Of a stretch of 60,029 bases of DNA, positions 1-9,721 are shown piece by piece. The stretch covers positions 1-60,029 of the forward strand of contig PFJC01000022.1 in NCBI GenBank assembly GCA_002782865.1, in the 5' to 3' direction. The stretch is from Candidatus Uhrbacteria bacterium CG_4_10_14_3_um_filter_41_21. GTDB lineage: Bacteria > Patescibacteriota > Patescibacteriia > UBA9934. The notes below the pieces were generated by a model. It was not told the DNA's origin. It ran no database searches and saw nothing but the letters and a program-made list of their open reading frames with translations. The position numbers and the translations under genes were made by a program. Numbering within the stretch: position 1 is the first letter of the stretch; every line of letters begins with the position of its first letter.

Positions 1-844
1 TGTCGTCATTTGGCAACTGGATAAGCATTAACGGATTGATATTTTTACCCATTCTTTCCAATTCTTCTTTTATTTCCTCTCTTTTTGCCATTCCCAAATC
101 CAACAACACCTCGTCCAAATCCCTACCTTTATATTTTTGCAAATCTTCATCAGTCTGGACCATTATTCTTTCCTTTATCAAACCCTCACCAACCACACTA
201 TCTCTTTCAATCTCTAAATAACTCTTATTTCTATACGCTTCTAATTCATCATCTTGGTCTGGCGTGGCACTAACGTGAAGAATAATTTTTGGATTGATTT
301 TATCAATTTCATTTTTTGCCAAGTCCGTGCTTTTATTTTTGTGACTTTCGTCAATAATTAAAATAATCTCTCGTCCTTCTTTTTGAGTATTCTCCAAAAA
401 ATCCTCCCAATAACAACCACTTTCTTTTCTCATTGTTTCATCATCAGGACGACGTAAAACTCTACTGTCAGCACTCTTTGAAACAATCTTTTGCCAATTC
501 AAAAAAAGAATATCATTTTCATATAGTTTACCTCTGTTTATGTCATTGACTGTCACTAAATTATTTTCAAGATTATTCTCAAAATACTGCATAAACTTAT
601 CTCGGCTTTGCATTGCGAGATCATCGTTGAAAGTAATCCAAATAAACGCTTTATCTCGTTTCCATTGTGGTAAATGGTTTAGCCCACGCACAAAATTGGC
701 AACCATAAAAGTTTTACCACTTCCTGTTGGGGACTTAAACACCATTGGGATTTTTCTTTTCTCTTGTTTCCAAACACGGACAAACATTTCCAGTAAATCC
801 TCAACAGCTTTTTTTTGAAATCTTAATAAGTTAAAAATTTGCAT
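1..844 (-). CDS. res: Type III restriction enzyme Res subunit (SF2 helicase-nuclease), N-terminal part; gene runs off the window start
   Basis: Absent from the ORF track because it is open at the window edge. The reverse-strand ATG at 844..842 gives MQIFNLLRFQKKAVEDLL. It contains KSPTGSGKTFMVANF (Walker A, helicase motif I) and LIIDESHKN (DExH motif II). It starts 1 nt after the mod stop. Confidence 0.8.
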   Translation of the reverse strand, partial: MQIFNLLRFQKKAVEDLLEMFVRVWKQEKRKIPMVFKSPTGSGKTFMVANFVRGLNHLPQWKRDKAFIWITFNDDLAMQSRDKFMQYFENNLENNLVTVNDINRGKLYENDILFLNWQKIVSKSADSRVLRRPDDETMRKESGCYWEDFLENTQKEGREIILIIDESHKNKSTDLAKNEIDKINPKIILHVSATPDQDDELEAYRNKSYLEIERDSVVGEGLIKERIMVQTDEDLQKYKGRDLDEVLLDLGMAKREEIKEELERMGKNINPLMLIQLPNDD

Positions 845-845
845 A

Positions 846-2630
846 CTAAATTAGGTTGTATATCTGTTTGTATATTTCTACAATAGGTTGGGGTATTGTT
901 TTTAAGCGGATATTATTCAATCCTTCAAAATCATCAAAAATTGTTTCATCTTCCCAACTAAAAATATATACTGACACATCTTTTTTTAATTTCTTTACCT
1001 CGGCAACAAAGTCATCCAACTTGTCCATTTCTTCTCTAAAATATACAGCAGTGTATTGGTCGTCATTCTCAAAAATCTGCATATACTTATCTTGCTTGAC
1101 CAATTCAAAGGTATTTTCTGCTATTGCCAATAATTCACCTGCATTGTGAGCTAATTCAATTTTATCCGCATCAGTCACACTTAAAATGTTATTCTTACCA
1201 ACAAATTCTGTCACATAATAACTTAATGACCCGCCTAACCCCTTAATGCCAGCATATCCTTTTATAACTTTTTTTATTCTTGGGTAGCACACTTCTGACA
1301 TAATGTTATTCTCATCATTTGTGCATAAGATAAATTGACGTTCTCCATCGTCACTATCGTTTAATTGCATTACAGCGTGTCCAGTAGTTCCTGTACCTGC
1401 AAAAAAATCAAGAATTACTCCATCATTAGGACATCCTAATTGGATAAAATCCTTAATCAATTCTACTGGTTTTGGATTATTAAAAACTTTTTCACCAAAT
1501 ATCTTTTTTAGTAATCCAGTACCATTACCACTACTATATTCTGGTTTGTAAAATATCGATTTTGGTTTTTTTGACGGTAAATCACCTAATTTCGGTCTCT
1601 GTTTTTTGTAGATACTACTATCCTCACCATTAAAAATTATAATTAGATTGTGTGCTTCTGTATTTATTTTATTTTTACTCCAGCGCCACGACATTTCTTT
1701 TCCGCCTGTAATTGGTAAAACCACTACATCACCATTTCTTTTACCCTCATCTGTCATTTTATTATCTTCTCTAACATATACCTCACCATTTTTCCTAATA
1801 AATATCGGATAAAATAAGTTAGGTCTTTTTTCTCTTGGAGCATTATTACCGGTCGCTTTTAAATTTGCACCTTTTTTATAAAAACCAAACTCATCCTCTT
1901 CCCATTCATCCATATCCTCTTCATCAATAATTTTAAATTCACCAATTTGTGCAAAATCTCTATTTTTTGAATACACCAAAGTATACTCGTGAGTTCCTGC
2001 AAAACCGAACTGGTCGTTATTACCCTTTAAATTCATTACTGTTGGCAGACAAGCAATAAAGTTATCTTTATTTTTTTGTTTATTTTCTTTGTTGAAAATT
2101 TCATCACACAATAATTTTAATTGAGCAAACTCATTGTCATCAATACTGATAAATAATATACCTGTTTCTTTTAATAACTCACGTGCCAATTCTAATCGCT
2201 TCCTCATAAAAGACAACCAATAACTATGTCTGTATGGGTGGTCTTTTGGCACCTCTGTGCCATCAGGAAACTTGTCCAAAATCCTTTTATCTTTATATCT
2301 AAAACCGTCAGACCCTGTGTTATACGGCGGATCTATATAAATAACATCGATTTTGCCTTTATGGGTATAATTCAAACAAGTAAGGGCGTGATAATTATCT
2401 CCCTCAATTAAAATATGCATTGGCTTACCATCTTTATTTTTAATAGCCAACTTTGGATTTTCTTTTAAGATAGGAAGTTTATTTTCTACATCATCCTCAA
2501 ATGCTTCCGGCACATCCATCCAAACCAAACCGTACTTTTGTTTTTTCAAGTTCTTTTTAAGACGGTCAAGTTCTTTTTCTAAACGAAGTATTTTATTATC
2601 TTTTTCATTATCATTCATATTGTTTTGCAT
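846..2630 (-). CDS. mod: Type III R-M Mod subunit, beta-class N6-adenine/N4-cytosine DNA methyltransferase
   Basis: 594-aa ORF. Motif IV (IYIDPPYNTG) precedes motif I (LDFFAGTGTTGHAV), the beta-class order. It is directly upstream of res. Confidence 0.85.
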   Translation of the reverse strand: MQNNMNDNEKDNKILRLEKELDRLKKNLKKQKYGLVWMDVPEAFEDDVENKLPILKENPKLAIKNKDGKPMHILIEGDNYHALTCLNYTHKGKIDVIYIDPPYNTGSDGFRYKDKRILDKFPDGTEVPKDHPYRHSYWLSFMRKRLELARELLKETGILFISIDDNEFAQLKLLCDEIFNKENKQKNKDNFIACLPTVMNLKGNNDQFGFAGTHEYTLVYSKNRDFAQIGEFKIIDEEDMDEWEEDEFGFYKKGANLKATGNNAPREKRPNLFYPIFIRKNGEVYVREDNKMTDEGKRNGDVVVLPITGGKEMSWRWSKNKINTEAHNLIIIFNGEDSSIYKKQRPKLGDLPSKKPKSIFYKPEYSSGNGTGLLKKIFGEKVFNNPKPVELIKDFIQLGCPNDGVILDFFAGTGTTGHAVMQLNDSDDGERQFILCTNDENNIMSEVCYPRIKKVIKGYAGIKGLGGSLSYYVTEFVGKNNILSVTDADKIELAHNAGELLAIAENTFELVKQDKYMQIFENDDQYTAVYFREEMDKLDDFVAEVKKLKKDVSVYIFSWEDETIFDDFEGLNNIRLKTIPQPIVEIYKQIYNLI

Positions 2631-2654
2631 AAACCCATTTTCCCTTAAATCAAG

Positions 2655-2688
2655 ATAAAAAGCAAAAAACCCCGCTTTCGCGGGGTCT
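2655..2688 (-). terminator. Intrinsic terminator after the DUF91 nuclease gene
   Basis: Reverse strand has an ACCCCGC-GAAA-GCGGGGT hairpin (2669-2686) followed by a T-rich run. Confidence 0.8.
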
Positions 2689-2693
2689 TATTA

Positions 2694-3056
2694 TTAGTAT
2701 TCGTCTAATTTAAAATTTATCTTATAAATCTTACAGCTCACAAGATTTTTTACCATTTCTAATCCGTATTCTAATTTTTTATCACGATCACCAACGATTA
2801 TCATCCCGTGAACTTCTTCGCTATTTTTTGCAAGATTACTTTTAACCCAACCAACATAACGTAAAACCTGGCCGATGACTTCGTCATTCTTTCTTCCTTT
2901 TTTAAGTTTGATGACTATAAAATTTCCTTCTTTATCTTTTGCCAATAAATCAATGTACCCAGCATCTTGAGCATAATATTGACGGCCCTCGTTTCCCTCC
3001 TCATCAACAAACTTATTAAGTTTTTGTGAGAAATTAATTTTTTTTAATTTTGCCAA
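2694..3056 (-). CDS. DUF91/NucS-C-like PD-(D/E)xK nuclease domain protein (probable C-terminal half of a split gene)
   Basis: The segment GYIDLLAKDKEGNFIVIKLKKGRKNDEVIGQVLRYVGWV matches the D..(D/E)xK core and QxxxY helix of DUF91/NucS-type nucleases. It has a TTG start only and overlaps the upstream ORF by 13 nt. Confidence 0.6.
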   Translation of the reverse strand: MAKLKKINFSQKLNKFVDEEGNEGRQYYAQDAGYIDLLAKDKEGNFIVIKLKKGRKNDEVIGQVLRYVGWVKSNLAKNSEEVHGMIIVGDRDKKLEYGLEMVKNLVSCKIYKINFKLDEY

Positions 3057-3535
3057 ATGAATTCTTCTAAATACTTTTCCAAAGCAAATTCCATCTCTTC
3101 ATCTGGTTGCTCACCGGCTACAAATACATCTGGTTCAGACCCTAGAATAAGATTAAAATCTCGCTCTGATATTCGTCCAGATGATCCCATGGATGGCCTC
3201 CAACCTAAACTCTTAAAGTCATGTCGGCTTTTTGGACTTGGAAATACGACTACGTCATCTAAGTCAATCCGTAAAATATCTTCTCCATGAAACATCTTCT
3301 GTGAATCTTCGCTATCATCTTTATAGGCCCCACTCGCAAGTTTAGCGCTCCCAACGAAAACTTGATTATTCTGGCCGGTTAAATAAAAAATAACTCTATC
3401 TCCTGGCTGAATTGCTTTTCTATTTGCTGCCCTTGGTCCAAAACCCCAGACGTTTTTATCTACAACAAGATTTTTAAACCACTCATAGGCAGTCATGTCG
3501 TTAGCGTCAGATACCTGGAATACGTAATAATTCAT
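3044..3535 (-). CDS. PUA-like (EVE/ASCH-type) domain protein (probable N-terminal half of a split gene)
   Basis: 163 aa. The pattern YYVFQV..W.FGPRAANRKAIQPGDRVIFYLTG..QVFVGSAKL resembles EVE/ASCH PUA-like folds. The C-terminal EKYLEEFIWQN resembles the linker that precedes DUF91 nuclease cores. Confidence 0.45.
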   Translation of the reverse strand: MNYYVFQVSDANDMTAYEWFKNLVVDKNVWGFGPRAANRKAIQPGDRVIFYLTGQNNQVFVGSAKLASGAYKDDSEDSQKMFHGEDILRIDLDDVVVFPSPKSRHDFKSLGWRPSMGSSGRISERDFNLILGSEPDVFVAGEQPDEEMEFALEKYLEEFIWQN

Positions 3536-3547
3536 ATTTATTTTTCT

Positions 3548-3907
3548 TTAATCTTGATGCTCAGTCCATTTTTTAGCATTCCCATTTGCTTTATCAACCG
3601 GATACTTCTCACCAGTTTTTATAATCTTCTTCTCAAACGCCTGCTTGATATCAATCCCCAAATCGTGCGCCATTAAAAGCACCCAATATAAAACATCGGC
3701 TAACTCATCGCTGACGCCCTCAAACCCCTTTTCACTAGCCAAATAATTTTTAATATCATCCTCACTTTTCCATTGAAAATGTTCCATCACCTCTGCTGCC
3801 TCAAGGGCGAGTGACAAAGCCATATCTTTTGGATTATGGAACTGCTTCCAGTTCCGCTCATCGCGGAAAGCAACAATTTTGTCTGTAAGTTCTTTTAAAT
3901 CTGACAT
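3548..3907 (-). CDS. MazG-like nucleoside triphosphate pyrophosphohydrolase
   Basis: Contains LALEAAEVMEHFQW and ELADVLYWVLLMAHDLGID (MazG EExxE/D helices). Start moved to the ATG at 3907 (MSDLKEL); the tracked N-terminal extension lies inside a repeated leader. Confidence 0.8.
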   Translation of the reverse strand: MSDLKELTDKIVAFRDERNWKQFHNPKDMALSLALEAAEVMEHFQWKSEDDIKNYLASEKGFEGVSDELADVLYWVLLMAHDLGIDIKQAFEKKIIKTGEKYPVDKANGNAKKWTEHQD

Positions 3908-3966
3908 ATAAACCCATTCTGCTCGATTGGGGCGCAAAAAGCAAAAATCCCCATTTCTGGGGATCT
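3905..3966 (-). repeat. 62-nt repeat, copy 1 (terminator hairpin + leader + ATG of the MazG gene)
   Basis: 58/62 identical to 4893-4954 by manual alignment. A partial third copy (hairpin only) lies near 5553-5581. Confidence 0.85.
3936..3964 (-). terminator. Intrinsic terminator (part of the 62-nt repeat)
   Basis: Reverse strand has an ATCCCCA-GAAA-TGGGGAT hairpin followed by TTTTTGCTTTTT. Confidence 0.75.
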
Positions 3967-3987
3967 ATATAAAAACATCGCCTGGCA

Positions 3988-4016
3988 TTGACATTCTGCT
4001 GATTTTGACTTATATA
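3988..4016 (+). promoter_or_regulatory. Sigma70-type promoter of GC-rich cassette 1
   Basis: TTGACA (3988-3993), 17-nt spacer, TATATA (4011-4016). Confidence 0.6.
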
Positions 4017-4049
4017 TTAGGTACACACCCAGCTAGGAGTCACAGAGCA

Positions 4050-4349
4050 ATGACCATCTTCCCCGTCCTTCTCGGCCTCTTCGTGGCCGCCCTAGTGCTC
4101 GGCACCGTCGTCTGCTTCGTCAAGTCCGTCCTCGGCGATGGAGATCAGTGGACGTTCGCCGGCTTCCTCGGCACCGCCGCCACTCTCCACATCACCGTCT
4201 TCGCGATGGTCGGGTTCGCCCAGCGCTTCCCGGACCACCAGTGGACGTGGATCACGCTCGCGCTCATCGTGACGGCCTTCGACGTCGCCGTCGCCATCGC
4301 TGGCAACAACCACCGGCGCCAGCTCGTGCCCGCCATCGCCCAGCGCTGA
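4050..4349 (+). CDS. GC-rich cassette 1: small 3-TM membrane protein (99 aa), unknown function
   Basis: An AGGAG lies 10 nt upstream of the ATG at 4050. A sampled line is about 65% GC. Three hydrophobic segments (IFPVLLGLFVAALVLGTVVCF, FAGFLGTAATLHITVFAMVGF, WITLALIVTAFDVAVAIAG). Overlapping antisense and out-of-frame ORFs are treated as shadows. Confidence 0.6.
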   Translation: MTIFPVLLGLFVAALVLGTVVCFVKSVLGDGDQWTFAGFLGTAATLHITVFAMVGFAQRFPDHQWTWITLALIVTAFDVAVAIAGNNHRRQLVPAIAQR

Positions 4350-4370
4350 GCCTCGACTCAGCTCCCCTTC

Positions 4371-4404
4371 GACCCCAGCCTCTCGGCCGGGGTCGTCGTT
4401 TTTT
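4371..4404 (+). terminator. GC-rich intrinsic terminator of cassette 1
   Basis: GACCCCAGCC-TCTC-GGCCGGGGTC hairpin followed by GTCGTTTTTT. Confidence 0.75.
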
Positions 4405-4407
4405 ATA

Positions 4408-4436
4408 AAAGAAAAATCCCGCTTTCGCGGGATTCT
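4408..4436 (-). terminator. Intrinsic terminator after the HIT gene
   Basis: Reverse strand has an AATCCCGC-GAAA-GCGGGATT hairpin followed by TTTTC. Confidence 0.75.
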
Positions 4437-4439
4437 TAT

Positions 4440-4895
4440 TTATACTTCTTTAATTTTCTCCGCTACCAGCGCCAGCTCACTATCATCGGCTCGATCTGCA
4501 TCATGCGAGCTAATGTAGCCAGGATACTCTTTGTAAAAATCATTAATAACAGAAGATCGCTTTTGCCAATCACCAACTGTTCCGTGCAGTGGGAAAAGTT
4601 TTAAATGTAAGTGGTCAACCCCAAATCCTTCAGCCACCAAGCCAGTGCGTCCAACATCTTCAAAGGCTATATCAATCTTTTTCGCCACTTCTTTGGCTGC
4701 TAAAACTAAACCAGTAATTACATTTTCAGGAGCATCGAATAGATAACTGCCATGGTGCTCTTTTGGAATCAGAACCGTTACCCCTTTTGTATTTGGAAAA
4801 ATACTCAAAAATGCTAAATGATTTTCATCTTCCCAAACTTTATGGCCTGGAGAACTCCCATTTACGATTTGGCAAAAAATACAGTTATCATTCAT
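4440..4895 (-). CDS. HIT-family (histidine triad) nucleotide hydrolase/transferase
   Basis: Contains CIFCQIV near the N-terminus and VDHLHLKLFP (HxHxHxx triad). Start set at the ATG at 4895 (MNDNCIF). Confidence 0.85.
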   Translation of the reverse strand: MNDNCIFCQIVNGSSPGHKVWEDENHLAFLSIFPNTKGVTVLIPKEHHGSYLFDAPENVITGLVLAAKEVAKKIDIAFEDVGRTGLVAEGFGVDHLHLKLFPLHGTVGDWQKRSSVINDFYKEYPGYISSHDADRADDSELALVAEKIKEV

Positions 4896-4954
4896 ATAAA
4901 CCCATTCTGCCCGATTAAGGCGCAAAAAGCAAAAATCCTCATTTCTGGGGATCT
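4893..4954 (-). repeat. 62-nt repeat, copy 2 (terminator hairpin + leader + ATG of the HIT gene)
   Basis: 58/62 identical to 3905-3966. This explains the identical spurious N-terminal extensions MR.NRAEWVYM in two ORF-track entries. Confidence 0.85.
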
Positions 4955-4969
4955 TTATGTAAAAATATT

Positions 4970-5506
4970 TTACTTCTTATCTAAATCGGCAACCGTTTTC
5001 CACAAATCAGACATTACCTCCGGCTGAAGCAATGGTACAGAGTCTTCTTCACCAACATTGACGGCTCTATACATAATCTGATCAAGTACATATTCAGCAT
5101 GGCTAAGTTCGTTAAAGCGTCTTTGCATCTGCGTATGTCTTTCGTTATCGTCTTTTATTTCTAAAGAGCTGGCAGCTCTTTCAATAAGCTTTTTCATTAA
5201 ATTAAATCCTCGTGTATATCTTTCCAAGTCTCTATTAGAGAGTTTCCCCCTATCCAATGCAACTACTGCCTCCATTAATTGTTTTTGCATGTCATGTAAA
5301 TTAAACGGCTCAACACCCTCTCTCCAATCTAATTCTCGAAAAGTCTTTTCGTTTATTACTTCAGTTAAATCTTCAATCTTCTTTGCCAACGCAGTTAACT
5401 CTATCCTTAGCTCTGAGTAATCTCGCGTTTCTTTTATGCCGAATTCGTCTTTTGCGTGCCCGTCTTCAAAACGCCTTTGTAACTCTTCAGAAAATGATTC
5501 TTTCAT
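4970..5506 (-). CDS. Hypothetical helical protein (178 aa)
   Basis: Clean ORF with host-like composition, flanked by terminator hairpins. No motif recognised. Confidence 0.6.
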   Translation of the reverse strand: MKESFSEELQRRFEDGHAKDEFGIKETRDYSELRIELTALAKKIEDLTEVINEKTFRELDWREGVEPFNLHDMQKQLMEAVVALDRGKLSNRDLERYTRGFNLMKKLIERAASSLEIKDDNERHTQMQRRFNELSHAEYVLDQIMYRAVNVGEEDSVPLLQPEVMSDLWKTVADLDKK

Positions 5507-5585
5507 AATAAGAAAATTATTGTTTTTACTATTTTATACTAAATTCATAAAAAGGCAAAAATCCCCATTTCTGGGATCTATGCGA

Positions 5586-6662
5586 TTACTTTTTAGCCTC
5601 GTTTTTTGAACGAGTAACCATAAACTTTACCCCTTCAGACATATTCTCCTCTTTAATTTCAATACTCGGATGCGCATTTTGAAATACTCTATATATCTCA
5701 TCTACAAAAGCCTGTCCGACAACTGGCACTTTGTCAAAATTAAGAAGAATAATTTTAAATTTTTCTAGACCGGAAAGAATACGCCTGGCTTGAGATCGAG
5801 AAATATGGATTCCGCCGGCGGTGTATAGATTAACGCGGATTTCAGTCTTGTCAAAACCGTAATCGCTACCTCCTTTTGAATCAGTGAATTTCTTAAAAAT
5901 ATCATTCAGATGTAAATCTGATTTTATATCTATTTCAAAAATAACTGCTGTTCCCCGCTTGATAGTAGATATTCGCCTCACCTCAACATCATCTTTTGAA
6001 ACTATTAACTGATACCCAAAACTATTTAAATTAAATTTATCTCCCGATCTTGATGTAAAGAAAATTCCCTCACCAGAATGAGACTTAGGCATGGTCGTTG
6101 TTTTGCCTTTTAAAAGATCTTGGATAGCCTGCATCTCTGAATCAAGTTTCCTATTTTTCATGATGTTTCGAAAAACACCAACTCCGGAATCTTCTACGAT
6201 AAATGAAAACTGATTATTGCGAAGTGCAATCTCGACACCAATTATTTTTGATTGCGAATGTTCAATGGCATTATTAAACATTTCCGAAAATGCAAAATTA
6301 AAAATACTATGAATATTTTCCGGAAGATCCATTAAAGCCGGGAAACTCTTTTCAATATCCATCAAAACCATGTGCTCCTCAAGTGATTCATTTCTATATT
6401 TTTTACTAAAAACATTTGGGATGATATCCGGATGTTTTTGAGCGTAGAGCGAAGAAACATAAAAGGCCGATCTGGTACTCCCAATTTTAAGAATTTTTTT
6501 ATCAGCGATTAGGCCTGATAGTAATTGATTAAGATATTGACGAGAAACACCAAACTCAACAGAAAGCTCCTTGGCGGTGAACTTCTCTTTTTTATTGGCT
6601 ATTTCTAATATTTTATTTTTACTCAACATAAGCAAGTACATTGTAAACCATTCTATATTCAA
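5586..6662 (-). CDS. HTH + histidine-kinase-like ATPase (HATPase_c) + STAS-like DUF4325 protein
   Basis: Contains an HTH (ELSVEFGVSRQYLNQLLSGL), an N-box (FNNAIEHS), a G1 box (DSGVGVF) and a G2-like box (GEGIFFTS). The C-terminal FDKVPVVGQAFVDEIYRVF resembles DUF4325. The start may be an internal Met. Confidence 0.6.
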   Translation of the reverse strand: MNIEWFTMYLLMLSKNKILEIANKKEKFTAKELSVEFGVSRQYLNQLLSGLIADKKILKIGSTRSAFYVSSLYAQKHPDIIPNVFSKKYRNESLEEHMVLMDIEKSFPALMDLPENIHSIFNFAFSEMFNNAIEHSQSKIIGVEIALRNNQFSFIVEDSGVGVFRNIMKNRKLDSEMQAIQDLLKGKTTTMPKSHSGEGIFFTSRSGDKFNLNSFGYQLIVSKDDVEVRRISTIKRGTAVIFEIDIKSDLHLNDIFKKFTDSKGGSDYGFDKTEIRVNLYTAGGIHISRSQARRILSGLEKFKIILLNFDKVPVVGQAFVDEIYRVFQNAHPSIEIKEENMSEGVKFMVTRSKNEAKK

Positions 6663-6689
6663 TTGTCAAGTGATTGTCAACCAATAACA

Positions 6690-6720
6690 AAAAGTCCCCA
6701 TCTCCGGGGATTTTTTTTAA
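6690..6720. terminator. Bidirectional hairpin terminator after efp
   Basis: TCCCC..GGGGA hairpin flanked by A-rich and T8 runs. Confidence 0.7.
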
Positions 6721-6728
6721 TTATCGAA

Positions 6729-7292
6729 CTAGTTTACTCGCTCCACATAATCTCCTGTTTCTGTATTTATCTTTACCCTGTCGCCGATTTTGATAAAAAT
6801 CGGCACTCGAGCATTTAAGCCGTTGTCGAGCTCGGCATCTTTGGAAACATTACCGGAAACTGTATCCCCCTTTACCGCCGGCTCGGTCATTGTAACTGTA
6901 TATTCAATCTTTTGAGGAAGTTCGACTGCAATTGGGTTACTTTCGTGCATTATCACCATTACATCTAGGCCTTCTTTCAAGTATTTTCTGTCGTCTCCAA
7001 TAACCTCAGCTTGAATCTCTACCTGTTCGTAGCTAACACCGTCCATGAAAGTAAATGTGGCGCCATCGCCAAAAATAAACGACATTTTTTTATTTGAAAC
7101 ATCAGCAAACTCAAGATTTTCGCTGGCTTTGTAGTTGTTGTCATTAACTTTACCACTTGAGAGTGATTTCATTTTGGTACGAACAAATGAACCGCCTTTT
7201 CCCGGAGACACGCGTTGAAAGCCGGTTACAACCCAAAGCTCGCCATCGCGGTTAATTACTGTTCCTTTTTTTATATCGTTTGGAGAAGCCAT
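6729..7292 (-). CDS. efp: Elongation factor P
   Basis: 187 aa. Contains the canonical KPGKG-type loop (VSPGKGGSFVRTKMKS) and the EF-P domain order. Confidence 0.95.
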   Translation of the reverse strand: MASPNDIKKGTVINRDGELWVVTGFQRVSPGKGGSFVRTKMKSLSSGKVNDNNYKASENLEFADVSNKKMSFIFGDGATFTFMDGVSYEQVEIQAEVIGDDRKYLKEGLDVMVIMHESNPIAVELPQKIEYTVTMTEPAVKGDTVSGNVSKDAELDNGLNARVPIFIKIGDRVKINTETGDYVERVN

Positions 7293-7300
7293 ACATCAAT

Positions 7301-8149
7301 TTATTTTTTAAATCTATCCCTCGGAGGAAATATATGAATATCATTAATATCACCGACACCGTACTTGAGCATCACTAATCGGTCAACTCCCAGAGCATTT
7401 CCACAAACCGGTCGATTAATTTTTGCAAGAGATTCTAACAGCTCTTCGTCTATTCCAAAAACCCTTTTCCCCATTTTTCTACGCTCTTCTTGCTCTTGCT
7501 CAAACCTGATTCTTTGCTCTTTGGCGTCAATCAATTCTGAAAATCCATTACAAAGTTCCATTCCTCCGGCATAAGCCTCAAATCTCTCCGCATATTTTCC
7601 ATCTTCTGATAATTTTGCCAACGCTGCCTTTTCTGGCGGATAGTTCATGACAAAAAATCTATTATGATCAACTCGCGGGTCTTCGTCTTCATCCATATTG
7701 GCGTCCTTGTACTCAACTCGTGGCCACTCGCCTTCCCAACCCATTATGTGATTTACCAGAGCCTCGGTTTCGCGCATACAACTTTCGTAGTTAGCACCAA
7801 CTCGGTACCACTCCAGCATTGTAAACTCAGGTGAGTTATGTGGAGCTAGGGCTTCACCCGCTCGAAAACATCTGGTGACTGTATAAATCTTCTCAAATCC
7901 GGCCCCTAATAACTTTTTCATGGCAAACTCAGGCGAGGTGATAAGAGCAGCGTCAGTTTTTTCTGGAGCTGGATTGAAAATATCAAGTTCCACTACAACT
8001 GGATCGATGGTTGGTGCTAAATCAGGATATCTAACTAAAAGCGGAGGATTAAATCCCAAGTATCCACGAGATCTAAAAAAATGATGAACAGCCGCAACTA
8101 CATTGTCGCCCATTGCCTGTCGTCTTAGAATATCATCTTTGCTTAACAT
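7301..8149 (-). CDS. epmA: EF-P--(R)-beta-lysine ligase (class II LysRS-like, EpmA/PoxA)
   Basis: Truncated class II aaRS core lacking an anticodon domain (FRAGE, GVDRLVML motifs), immediately upstream of efp. Confidence 0.8.
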   Translation of the reverse strand: MLSKDDILRRQAMGDNVVAAVHHFFRSRGYLGFNPPLLVRYPDLAPTIDPVVVELDIFNPAPEKTDAALITSPEFAMKKLLGAGFEKIYTVTRCFRAGEALAPHNSPEFTMLEWYRVGANYESCMRETEALVNHIMGWEGEWPRVEYKDANMDEDEDPRVDHNRFFVMNYPPEKAALAKLSEDGKYAERFEAYAGGMELCNGFSELIDAKEQRIRFEQEQEERRKMGKRVFGIDEELLESLAKINRPVCGNALGVDRLVMLKYGVGDINDIHIFPPRDRFKK

Positions 8150-8159
8150 AATAGTAAAA

Positions 8160-8270
8160 TCAGAAATTTGAATATAGAAATCAGAAACAAATACGAAATT
8201 AGAAGCATGAAATCGAATTTCAAATTTAGATATTCTAATTTGTTTAGAATTTCTAATTTCTTATTTACAT
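8160..8270. repeat. AT-rich low-complexity imperfect palindrome (AGAAAT/TAGAA words)
   Basis: GAAATTAGAA pairs with TTCTAATTTC around a centre near 8220. Related words recur at 51070-51250. Confidence 0.5.
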
Positions 8271-8283
8271 TTATAGTATACCA

Positions 8284-8312
8284 AAAACGAGGCACTTTAG
8301 TCCTCGCTTTTG
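8284..8312 (-). terminator. Intrinsic terminator after rpsR
   Basis: Reverse strand has a CGAGG..CCTCG hairpin followed by TTTTTGG. Confidence 0.65.
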
Positions 8313-8320
8313 TTTTATTT

Positions 8321-8557
8321 TTACTTGTGAACAAATGGCAACAGCGCCATTATTCTTGCTCGCTTTATCTCCTGTGACATTTGGCGTTGGTGACTTGAAC
8401 ACATTCCGCTTCGCTTTCTTGGAACTATTCTTGCAAATGAAGAAACATATCGTCGAAGTAAATCTGTATTTTTATAATCAATAACGATGTCTTTATTTAC
8501 GCAAAAGTTGCAGTATCTCTGCTTGGTCTTCTGCCTCATTGATGTAATTTTTGCCAT
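8321..8557 (-). CDS. rpsR: 30S ribosomal protein S18
   Basis: Contains CNFC..IDYKN..LLRRYVS..RIVPRKRSGMCSSHQR..IKRARIMALLPF. Confidence 0.95.
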   Translation of the reverse strand: MAKITSMRQKTKQRYCNFCVNKDIVIDYKNTDLLRRYVSSFARIVPRKRSGMCSSHQRQMSQEIKRARIMALLPFVHK

Positions 8558-8559
8558 AT

Positions 8560-9015
8560 TTAAAATGGTATATCTTCAATCTTTATTTCATCATCAGGTG
8601 AAACTGATGGTTCGTCTTGTCTTGGTTCAGGTTGTGAATATGAATCTCCACCAAAACCCGTTCCTGATCCTGAGCCTGCTTTTCCGCCCAACATCACCAT
8701 ATTTTCAGTGATGATTTCAGTTCGGTAGCGCTTTACCCCGTCTTGCCCTTCCCAATCGCGAGTTTGCAACCGTCCTTCTATAAAAACCTTGTTTCCTTTT
8801 TTTAGATATTGGTTACAGATTTCCGCTAACTTTCCCCAGGCAACAATATTGTGATATTCAACCTGTTCTTGTTTTTCTCCACTTGAAGAATTAGTCCAGG
8901 ACCGATTAGTTGCTACTCCAAATGAGCAAACTGATTGGCCGCTTCCTGTTTGTCTTAGCTCCGGGTCGCGGGTAAGGTTTCCGATAACCATTGCTTTGTT
9001 AAGTGATGAAGCCAT
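8560..9015 (-). CDS. ssb: Single-stranded DNA-binding protein
   Basis: OB-fold N-terminus ([16 protein letters not shown]), a Gly-rich linker and an acidic [11 protein letters not shown] tail. Confidence 0.95.
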
Positions 9016-9016
9016 A

Positions 9017-9490
9017 TTAAAGGTTGTTTAAATCTGTTTCTAAAATTTGGTCGAGTCTCTTGTCCAAATCTTCAGCTGAAACTGATTTTTCCTCCTGTTG
9101 AACAGGGGCCTTTTCTCGCCTTGGAGCTTTTTTAGCAGTAGCTCGTTTTCCTTCCGGAGTAAGTGGCTCTTGATATGAAGTAAGTTTGAAATGACCGGTT
9201 GGAATTCCGTGAGGTCGCTTCACAATTACATGACGCAAAACCTCTTCTGACAATCGTAGGTCTTGGTCTAATTTTTGCAAAGCAATTTCTTCGCCACTTA
9301 TGTAGTTAAGGACATAAGTGCCGTGACTTACCTTATTAACAGTGTACGCAAATTTGATTTTGCCAAGATTTTGGCTTTGTTCAACCTTTGCGCCGTTAGC
9401 TTCAAAATATTTTGAAACTCTTTCAATTATTCCATCAATCTCAGTATCTGAGTACTTTGATGGAATGATGTACAAAACTTCGTAGATCAT
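9017..9490 (-). CDS. rpsF: 30S ribosomal protein S6 with a basic/acidic C-terminal extension
   Basis: [15 protein letters not shown] matches the S6 N-terminus. Start set at the ATG at 9490 rather than the tracked GTG at 9505. Lies in an rpsF-ssb-rpsR operon. Confidence 0.9.
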
Positions 9491-9629
9491 AGGTATACTG
9501 GCCACTTCGATTTTGTGGCAGCCCGTAGGCTATGGACAGTTAATAATTATGTGGAGATATTAGCCTAAAGACCGATTTTGGTCAAGAATTTTATATAAAT
9601 CGACAAAAAGTCAATGGTTGCGTATCATC

Positions 9630-9721
9630 GGGGGAGTAACAAGGGTAATATGGGTAACAAAAATAATATTAAACCCTGTAACCCATTTCACCCCTTTTAT
9701 CCTTATCACCCTTATAACCCC
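9630..9721. repeat. GGGTRA-rich dispersed repeat, inverted pair
   Basis: GGGGGAGTAACAAGGGTAATATGGGTAAC faces its imperfect reverse complement (CCCTGTAACCCATTTCACCCCTTTTATCCTTATCACCCTTATAACCCC). Confidence 0.7.

Follow-up and report, generated by a model that had tools for sequence, protein, structure and literature searches.

A MazG-like gene, a frameshifted EVE-nuclease gene and a Type III restriction-modification system in a probable variable defence slot of a Candidatus Uhrbacteria genome

The gene row described here lies at the beginning of contig PFJC01000022.1 of Candidatus Uhrbacteria bacterium CG_4_10_14_3_um_filter_41_21 (assembly GCA_002782865.1), of which the first 60,029 nucleotides (nt) were analysed as one stretch, in the following called the window. 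Read 5' to 3' on the minus strand, the row comprises a gene for a MazG-like protein, an open reading frame (ORF) of 163 amino acids (aa), an ORF of 120 aa, a hairpin, and the genes mod and res of a Type III restriction-modification (R-M) system. An earlier reading of the same sequence (the original prediction) regarded the first three ORFs as an operon of three genes, which forms a modification-sensing defence module next to the R-M system. All ORFs and coordinates, the intergenic distances (12 nt from the MazG to the EVE ORF, -13 nt from the EVE to the nuclease ORF) and the single terminator before mod were reproduced, and the domain calls MazG-like, EVE, NucS_C/PD-(D/E)xK and Type III mod-res are confirmed by Pfam and PADLOC. 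The features are listed below.

2-844, minus strand: N-terminal 281 aa of Res, cut by the window edge (ResIII PF04851, 9.7e-21).
846-2630, minus strand: Type III Mod, 594 aa, apparently intact (N6_N4_Mtase, 1e-35; PADLOC MTase_III, 9.6e-87).
2666-2689, minus strand: intrinsic-terminator-like hairpin between the broken nuclease gene and mod (10-bp stem with 6 GC pairs, T-tail).
2694-3056, minus strand: 120-aa ORF with a linker and a NucS_C-type PD-(D/E)xK domain, 3' half of the broken gene (NucS_C PF01939).
3036-3062, minus strand: frameshift junction ...TGG CAA AAT TAA AAA AAA TT..., one base fewer than in the relatives.
3044-3535, minus strand: 163-aa ORF with an EVE domain (PUA superfamily), 5' half of the broken gene (EVE PF01878, 1.2e-8).
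3548-3907, minus strand: MazG-like (DCTPP1/RS21-C6-type) nucleoside triphosphate (NTP) pyrophosphohydrolase, 119 aa, intact (PF12643, 8.6e-19).
3905-3978, minus strand: terminator hairpin 3966-3945 together with the leader and start region of the MazG gene (hairpin family D2).

In Pfam the 163-aa ORF matches EVE with 35.5 bits (cut-off 23), and the 120-aa ORF matches NucS_C with 5.3e-8 and 33.3 bits (cut-off 24). A search with the two sequences joined matched 210 proteins with identities of up to 73%, and nearly all of the best 120 of these are 280-286 aa long and carry EVE and NucS_C on a single chain with 100% query coverage. The 163-aa ORF aligns over its full length with the N-terminal halves of the single-chain homologues, of which there are more than 200. 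The alignment passes the junction in register: the relatives read ...LEKYLEDFIWDNW(D/E)KIDFGEKL..., whereas in the window ...LEKYLEEFIWQN-stop ends one frame and ...KKINFSQKL... follows in the -1 frame, so that FIWQN, followed after the break by KKINF, stands opposite FIWDNWDKIDF. On the DNA level AAT TGG GAT of the relatives is opposed to AAT TA- AAA in the window, which places a 1-nt deletion in the Trp codon of the conserved FIWDNW motif. The PD-(D/E)xK fold is present, but in another reading frame than the EVE domain. Judged from these alignments, the EVE and the DUF91 ORF are the two halves of one frameshifted gene and not two genes, and the proposed operon of three genes is to be corrected in this respect. 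The junction is identical in six independent conspecific assemblies from different samples (JGI, ENA, NCBI GCA_002792155.1) and is therefore not an assembly error; in the sequence collection, 90 blocks list the 163-aa product.

The nuclease half carries a second lesion. The PD-(D/E)xK core of the family reads GYID...ELKKGR, and the catalytic ExK is ELK or EDK in 116 of 118 full-length homologues; the window has KLK. Where 19 relatives agree without exception, the nuclease half differs at 4 of 39 columns, the change of the catalytic Glu to Lys included, and the EVE half at 0 of 30. Together with the 1-nt deletion the KLK motif marks the gene as a fixed pseudogene, at least for the nuclease function, and the EVE-nuclease of this species is predicted to be catalytically dead. 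Frameshift and Glu-to-Lys exchange also mean that the functional module of the original prediction would be inactive in this genome.

Broken copies were also seen in two other loci. In the EVE-nuclease copy of L016 (6001-6842) the frame shifts near codon 106, and a stop stands in place of the same Trp that is affected in the window, that of the DNW motif; the copy of L013 (6001-6849) contains a single in-frame stop, possibly a case of recoding. The EVE-nuclease seems to have been inactivated repeatedly in the family.

A full-length protein might still arise if programmed ribosomal frameshifting or transcriptional slippage took place at the A-rich junction, which is flanked by an A4 and an A8 run and where all assemblies show the same fixed lesion. 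However, the TAA of the EVE frame needs, besides its T, no more than the first two positions of the A8 run, hence a change in run length cannot remove the stop. Moreover, the junction contains no slippery heptamer of the type X_XXY_YYZ, an A-run is missing at the corresponding site of the relatives, and even a full-length product would lack the catalytic Glu. We consider this explanation extremely improbable.

The MazG-like protein appears intact. It matches MazG-like PF12643 with 68 bits (cut-off 27), among PDB structures it matches DCTPP1 (1e-15) and 4qgp (4e-17), which places it with the all-alpha NTP pyrophosphohydrolases, and the family-invariant acidic residues for metal binding, E36, E39, E42, E68 and D71, are all present. 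DCTPP1 prefers 5-modified dCTP. The ORF starts with ATG, and a TTG at 3937 is also possible as start. Homologues of about 115 aa are found by the thousands at 60-70% identity across the candidate phyla radiation (CPR).

The original prediction was to be given up if MazG, EVE and nuclease did not occur together elsewhere, and no such co-occurrence was found. A family hidden Markov model (HMM), which was built from 120 MazG homologues, detected MazG within 6 kb of the EVE-nuclease in 0 of 29 non-conspecific loci and matched the six conspecific contigs only. A single-sequence tblastn search of MazG against the 22 genome loci of the EVE-nuclease gave no match either, with the same outcome for the family HMM. 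EVE or NucS domains are encoded in 0 of 80 metagenomic MazG loci, and another full-length EVE-nuclease is found in none of 60 relatives of the window genome. MazG is not the dedicated or conserved partner of the EVE-nuclease.

The usual downstream neighbour of MazG, at a distance of 1-3 nt, is a Schlafen-group-3/DUF2075 helicase, for which PADLOC reports matches to Nhi, AbiO and PDC-S41 and of which some copies have a GIY-YIG N-terminus. A strong PF09848 match adjoins MazG in all eight relatives that have such a match, and the same holds for four of four distant CPR lineages. The helicase follows directly downstream of MazG in 35 of 62 metagenomic loci with at least 600 nt of downstream sequence, and in 52 of 84 informative loci if a 2.6-kb window is applied and the loci of the relatives are added. 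MazG and helicase form a conserved, mobile two-gene module across the CPR; no paper describing a pair of MazG and DUF2075/Schlafen was found in the literature. The MazG of the window belongs to the same family as the MazG of this pair, at the 60-70% identity given above, whereas the place which the helicase occupies in the relatives is filled here by the EVE-nuclease gene and the Type III R-M system. No PF09848 helicase is encoded anywhere in the window genome. The pair was seen in the loci L052-L058, L061, L063, L066, L068 and L069 as well as in metagenome loci among L071-L150, and some copies of the MazG-linked helicase carry an S24 peptidase.

A comparison of gene orders accounts for the juxtaposition of MazG and EVE-nuclease. 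The order is MazG, EVE/nuclease, mod, res and DUF2779 in the window species, MazG, helicase and DUF2779 in G028, and MazG, Fic, helicase, two RhuM and DUF2779 in G016. Accordingly arranged, the region would be a variable defence slot of a small CPR genome, situated between the conserved DCTPP1-like MazG and DUF2779. The usual occupant of this position in the relatives is a nuclease-helicase of the Schlafen/DUF2075 (Nhi-like) kind, immediately behind MazG. Here it would have received a horizontally acquired block of two units, namely the EVE-nuclease gene and the Type III mod-res genes, of which the latter would represent a transcription unit of their own, bounded by terminators. That the locus is such a slot, with the EVE-nuclease as a fixed pseudogene beside a Type III R-M system and with MazG not as its dedicated partner, is in our view highly probable. 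At present likely only MazG and the Type III R-M system are active. Instead of a new system of three genes, the locus represents an ordinary defence island that is partly decayed; the defence-island setting of the original prediction is upheld, with Type III mod-res as the adjoining system.

The hairpin at 2666-2689 was identified in a repeat search as a member of hairpin family D1. A terminator scan of the window revealed 10 terminator-like sites, compared to 3.2 expected, and no terminator-like hairpin on the minus strand in the interior of the MazG-EVE-nuclease block. According to the terminators at 3966-3945 and 2689-2666, MazG and the two short ORFs are transcribed as one unit and mod-res as another, and MazG and the EVE-nuclease gene are probably co-transcribed.

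Several observations weigh against the slot interpretation. Only 12 nt, without a terminator, lie between MazG and the EVE ORF. The EVE half is unchanged at every family-invariant position, which could mean a very recent lesion or a retained stand-alone reader. Low-level recoding across the junction may take place. Finally, a row of MazG, a nuclease of the sensor-PD-(D/E)xK type and an ATP-dependent R-M system recurs, with non-homologous parts, in two related genomes of the same family in different contexts, and this recurrence in G009 and G002 hints at more than coincidence.

If the 163-aa EVE protein were retained, it could serve as a stand-alone reader of modified bases which, for example, modulates or targets the Type III enzyme, while the nuclease half decays. 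The asymmetry of the deviations (0 of 30 in the EVE and 4 of 39 in the nuclease half, with the catalytic Glu among the latter) and the EVE ORF itself, which has kept its ATG 12 nt behind MazG, are in line with this idea, and as a precedent Bell et al. 2020 (PMC7641849) describe stand-alone EVE proteins beside restriction systems of Type I and of the helicase-nuclease kind. The asymmetry is, however, derived from small numbers (roughly p = 0.1), and a recent lesion would explain it just as well. Furthermore, no stand-alone EVE homologues are found among the matches of the EVE-nuclease family except the product of this species itself. A retained reader appears improbable to us.

In G009 (L051, C1:60000-75000; 1776-8555, minus strand) genes for DUF1761, MazG-like, PDC-S02, a Type IIG enzyme and a Type II methyltransferase follow each other in a tight row. 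The PDC-S02 protein is full-length (325 aa, E 2.6e-149), and the Type IIG enzyme is a T5orf172-ResIII-Eco57I protein of 1287 aa. In G002 (L055, C1:529000-546000; 1195-9713, minus strand) the row consists of a YgjP-like metallopeptidase, MazG-like, a protein of 272 aa with HARE-HTH and PD-(D/E)xK, a Type III Mod of 760 aa and a Res of 892 aa. The architecture of the G002 row is the same as in the window, with a different putative sensor of modified DNA. In addition, about 9 of 27 helicase-free MazG loci have another nuclease downstream (Vsr, HNH, MTES_1575, NOV_C, BsaWI). A MazG subclade specialised for cassettes of nuclease and R-M was considered and is ruled out: the three nuclease plus R-M cases do not cluster in the MazG tree, and the MazG of G002 is sister to a helicase-associated one of the same genus. 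The replacements were accordingly independent.

These data also bear on the three-gene reading, in which MazG destroys non-canonical dNTPs while a separate EVE reader and a separate DUF91 nuclease attack hypermodified DNA, the whole working as a modification-sensing module coupled to the Type III R-M system. The tight spacing without an internal terminator, the DCTPP1-like nature of MazG, the analogous orders in G009 (PDC-S02 and Type IIG) and G002 (HARE-HTH-PDDEXK and Type III) and the nucleases downstream of MazG in about a third of the helicase-free loci (the 9 of 27 above) would agree with it. Against this, more than 200 homologues have EVE and nuclease in a single gene, the window copy has no catalytic Glu, MazG and the EVE-nuclease are absent from each other's loci (0 of 29 and 0 of 80), the nuclease-associated MazGs are unclustered on the tree, with that of G002 beside a helicase-associated one, and a terminator parts the block from mod. 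The split gene and the co-occurrence tests largely refute such a module; that the three parts work together as a coupled system, with the division of labour between MazG, reader and nuclease which it implies, is very improbable. What is left is a weaker, analogous pattern in the two related genomes.

This residual signal can be explained by a defence slot prone to recombination at the 3' end of MazG, or by a general functional tie between MazG and nucleases. We regard a functional tie of a modified-dCTP pyrophosphatase MazG with DNA nucleases as rather unlikely, and equally doubtful is a role of DCTPP1-like MazG as a general accessory of nucleases which discriminate between modified and unmodified DNA. 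If such a tie were true, MazG might sanitise modified dCTP and thereby keep the host DNA a non-target, or it might starve phages with modified DNA. It would account for the translationally coupled MazG before Nhi-like nuclease-helicases in most genomes as well as for MazG before three unrelated sensor-nucleases (EVE, PDC-S02 N-domain, HARE-HTH), each with an ATP-dependent R-M system behind it, in three genera of this CPR family. In that case the window would exemplify, in decayed form, a broader and so far undescribed design of MazG and modification-sensing nuclease, and sanitation of the nucleotide pool would be linked to self/non-self discrimination.

The R-M system is of Type III: Mod is an N6/N4 methyltransferase with DPPY and AdoMet motifs, and Res, encoded directly after mod, combines a superfamily 2 (SF2) helicase with PD-(D/E)xK. 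The motifs DPPY and FAGTGTTG are visible in the translation of Mod, and the gap between mod and res is 1 nt. Res is available in full length from the conspecific contig L023 (795 aa; PADLOC REase_III, 4.2e-17), has ResIII and Helicase_C matches with the helicase motifs, and ends in a C-terminal YPD...FDTK (PD-DxK), which aligns with the Res of a Harrisonbacteria-like locus in the shared form YPD...(F/I)DTK. The possibility that Res has no nuclease of its own and borrows the EVE-nuclease is ruled out by this conserved PD-DxK, and the R-M system is therefore not dependent on the EVE-nuclease. Phase-variable simple repeats were found neither in mod nor in res. The system resembles EcoP15I-type Type III R-M in the order of mod and res, the N6_N4 methyltransferase with DPPY and the SF2 helicase with C-terminal PD-DxK, but its Res is shorter (795 aa).

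The closest intact homologue of the EVE-nuclease, on Harrisonbacteria-like contigs, also lies beside a Type III system: HTH, EVE-nuclease, Type III mod and res follow in this order, and nuclease and mod overlap by 11 nt. Compared to that locus, the identity is 72% for the EVE-nuclease and only 37% for Mod and 32% for Res, which indicates that the nuclease has become attached to different ATP-dependent R-M systems. In the 22 genome loci of the EVE-nuclease restriction enzymes are frequent, but no single neighbour family is recurrent. A Type IIG enzyme is encoded directly upstream of the EVE-nuclease in L010 and L014, and a Type I HsdR gene overlaps with it in L011.

A different neighbourhood is found in another lineage (L029, 6001-10316). 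In the island around its intact EVE-nuclease, the NTP pyrophosphohydrolases are two NUDIX hydrolases and not MazG; further genes encode a Dam-like methyltransferase, DUF3800, HEPN and a SET-domain protein.

The family of EVE-nucleases with about 285 aa is represented in 22 species genomes, mostly from CPR/Patescibacteria plus a few archaea, and is concentrated in CPR/Patescibacteria and DPANN-type genomes. Viral contigs gave a single weak match, which covers the nuclease domain only; the family is therefore not phage-borne. It is cellular, sporadic and accessory. The AlphaFold model of an intact homologue (P0005) has a pLDDT (predicted local distance difference test) of 86.6, and a structural search with it gave NucS/EndoMS as best match (E 2.4e-7), while the matches to MspJI, a modification-dependent enzyme, and to the EVE domain of THYN1 were weaker.

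Bell, Wolf, Koonin et al. 2020 (PMC7641849) had already counted fusions of EVE with PD(D/E)XK among the putative Type IV restriction endonucleases. That publication does not mention NucS, DUF91, MazG or Type III and supports the generic EVE-PD(D/E)XK class only. The present family shares with these fusions the N-terminal EVE, the C-terminal PD-(D/E)xK and the sporadic occurrence in defence contexts, often beside R-M systems; it differs in that its nuclease is of the NucS_C/DUF91 type, as in PDC-S02 of PADLOC, and the window copy differs further by its frameshift and catalytic mutation. By analogy, intact family members are predicted to be candidate Type IV (modification-dependent) restriction enzymes. 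The modification-dependent nuclease which the original prediction suggested thus falls into a class already predicted in PMC7641849, but the copy in the window appears dead.

VcaM4I and TspA15I are EVE-HNH enzymes for which dependence on 5-methylcytosine or 5-hydroxymethylcytosine (5mC/5hmC) was found experimentally (PMC7897488, PMC6765204). As fusions of an EVE reader to a nuclease they offer a mechanistic model for the intact family, with the restriction that their nuclease is HNH and that of the present family PD-(D/E)xK, the likeness being drawn for the EVE fold. Following that model, the EVE domain of an intact member would flip a modified base out of incoming DNA and read it, after which the D...ExK nuclease at the C-terminus would cut this DNA. 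Intact members probably act in this read-then-cut manner, and their attack on modified DNA would complement the attack of the adjoining R-M system on unmodified DNA.

PDC-S02, in PADLOC a candidate defence system of one gene, has a homologous linker and nuclease domain (hhalign 99.8% over 138 columns), and occurs in a similar defence-island setting at a similar size. Against the PADLOC profile of PDC-S02 the EVE-nuclease family scores 1.1e-32, at positions 163-306 of 308 only, and the 120-aa ORF of the window 1.6e-26 at the C-terminal positions 197-306 of 308. In contrast, the N-terminal ~160 residues are unrelated according to hhalign, with EVE in place of the PDC-S02 N-domain. In the literature that cites PDC-S02 it is merely listed. 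To NucS/EndoMS the family is linked by the best structural match, the NucS_C match in Pfam and the D...ExK catalytic core. Identity with NucS/EndoMS was nevertheless rejected, as only 35.9 bits are reached at an NCBIfam equivalog cut-off of 216 and the N-terminal domain is EVE. EVE takes the place of the NucS DNA-binding domain, and the sporadic distribution is unlike that of a repair gene.

The biology of the window itself is mundane, because its nuclease is inactivated. Its analysis corrects an annotation trap in which two apparent genes are one gene, predicted to be dead. Beyond that it defines a large family of EVE plus NucS_C nucleases whose genes repeatedly adjoin ATP-dependent R-M systems (Types I, IIG and III). 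By the analogies described above, this family would be a promising candidate for a Type IV restriction enzyme that is new and has a useful specificity for modified bases. The analysis also characterises the 3' flank of the conserved DCTPP1-like MazG as a hot slot in which DNA-targeting defence genes have been exchanged repeatedly.

Upstream of MazG a repeat of 74 nt was found in two copies which are 89% identical, at 3905-3978 before MazG and at 4893-4966 before a HIT gene. Each copy contains a terminator hairpin, a leader and a start codon, and due to this repeat both long ORF calls, MazG and HIT, start with MR.NRAEWVYM. The two copies, spaced by 988 nt, flank the HIT gene and a GC-rich insert. 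This insert, a block of about 60% GC at ~3990-4400 in a genome of 30-40% GC, lies between HIT and MazG. Its plus strand contains an ORF (4050-4349) for a hydrophobic protein of 99 aa, without a Pfam match, and the block has its own terminator-like hairpin at 4378-4393. Further upstream in the island (5586-6662) a protein of 358 aa with HTH, HATPase_c and DUF4325 (STAS-like) is encoded, for which there is no PADLOC match. A homologue of this protein with 45% identity is encoded directly downstream of MazG in the relative G037 (L059, 2441-3466).

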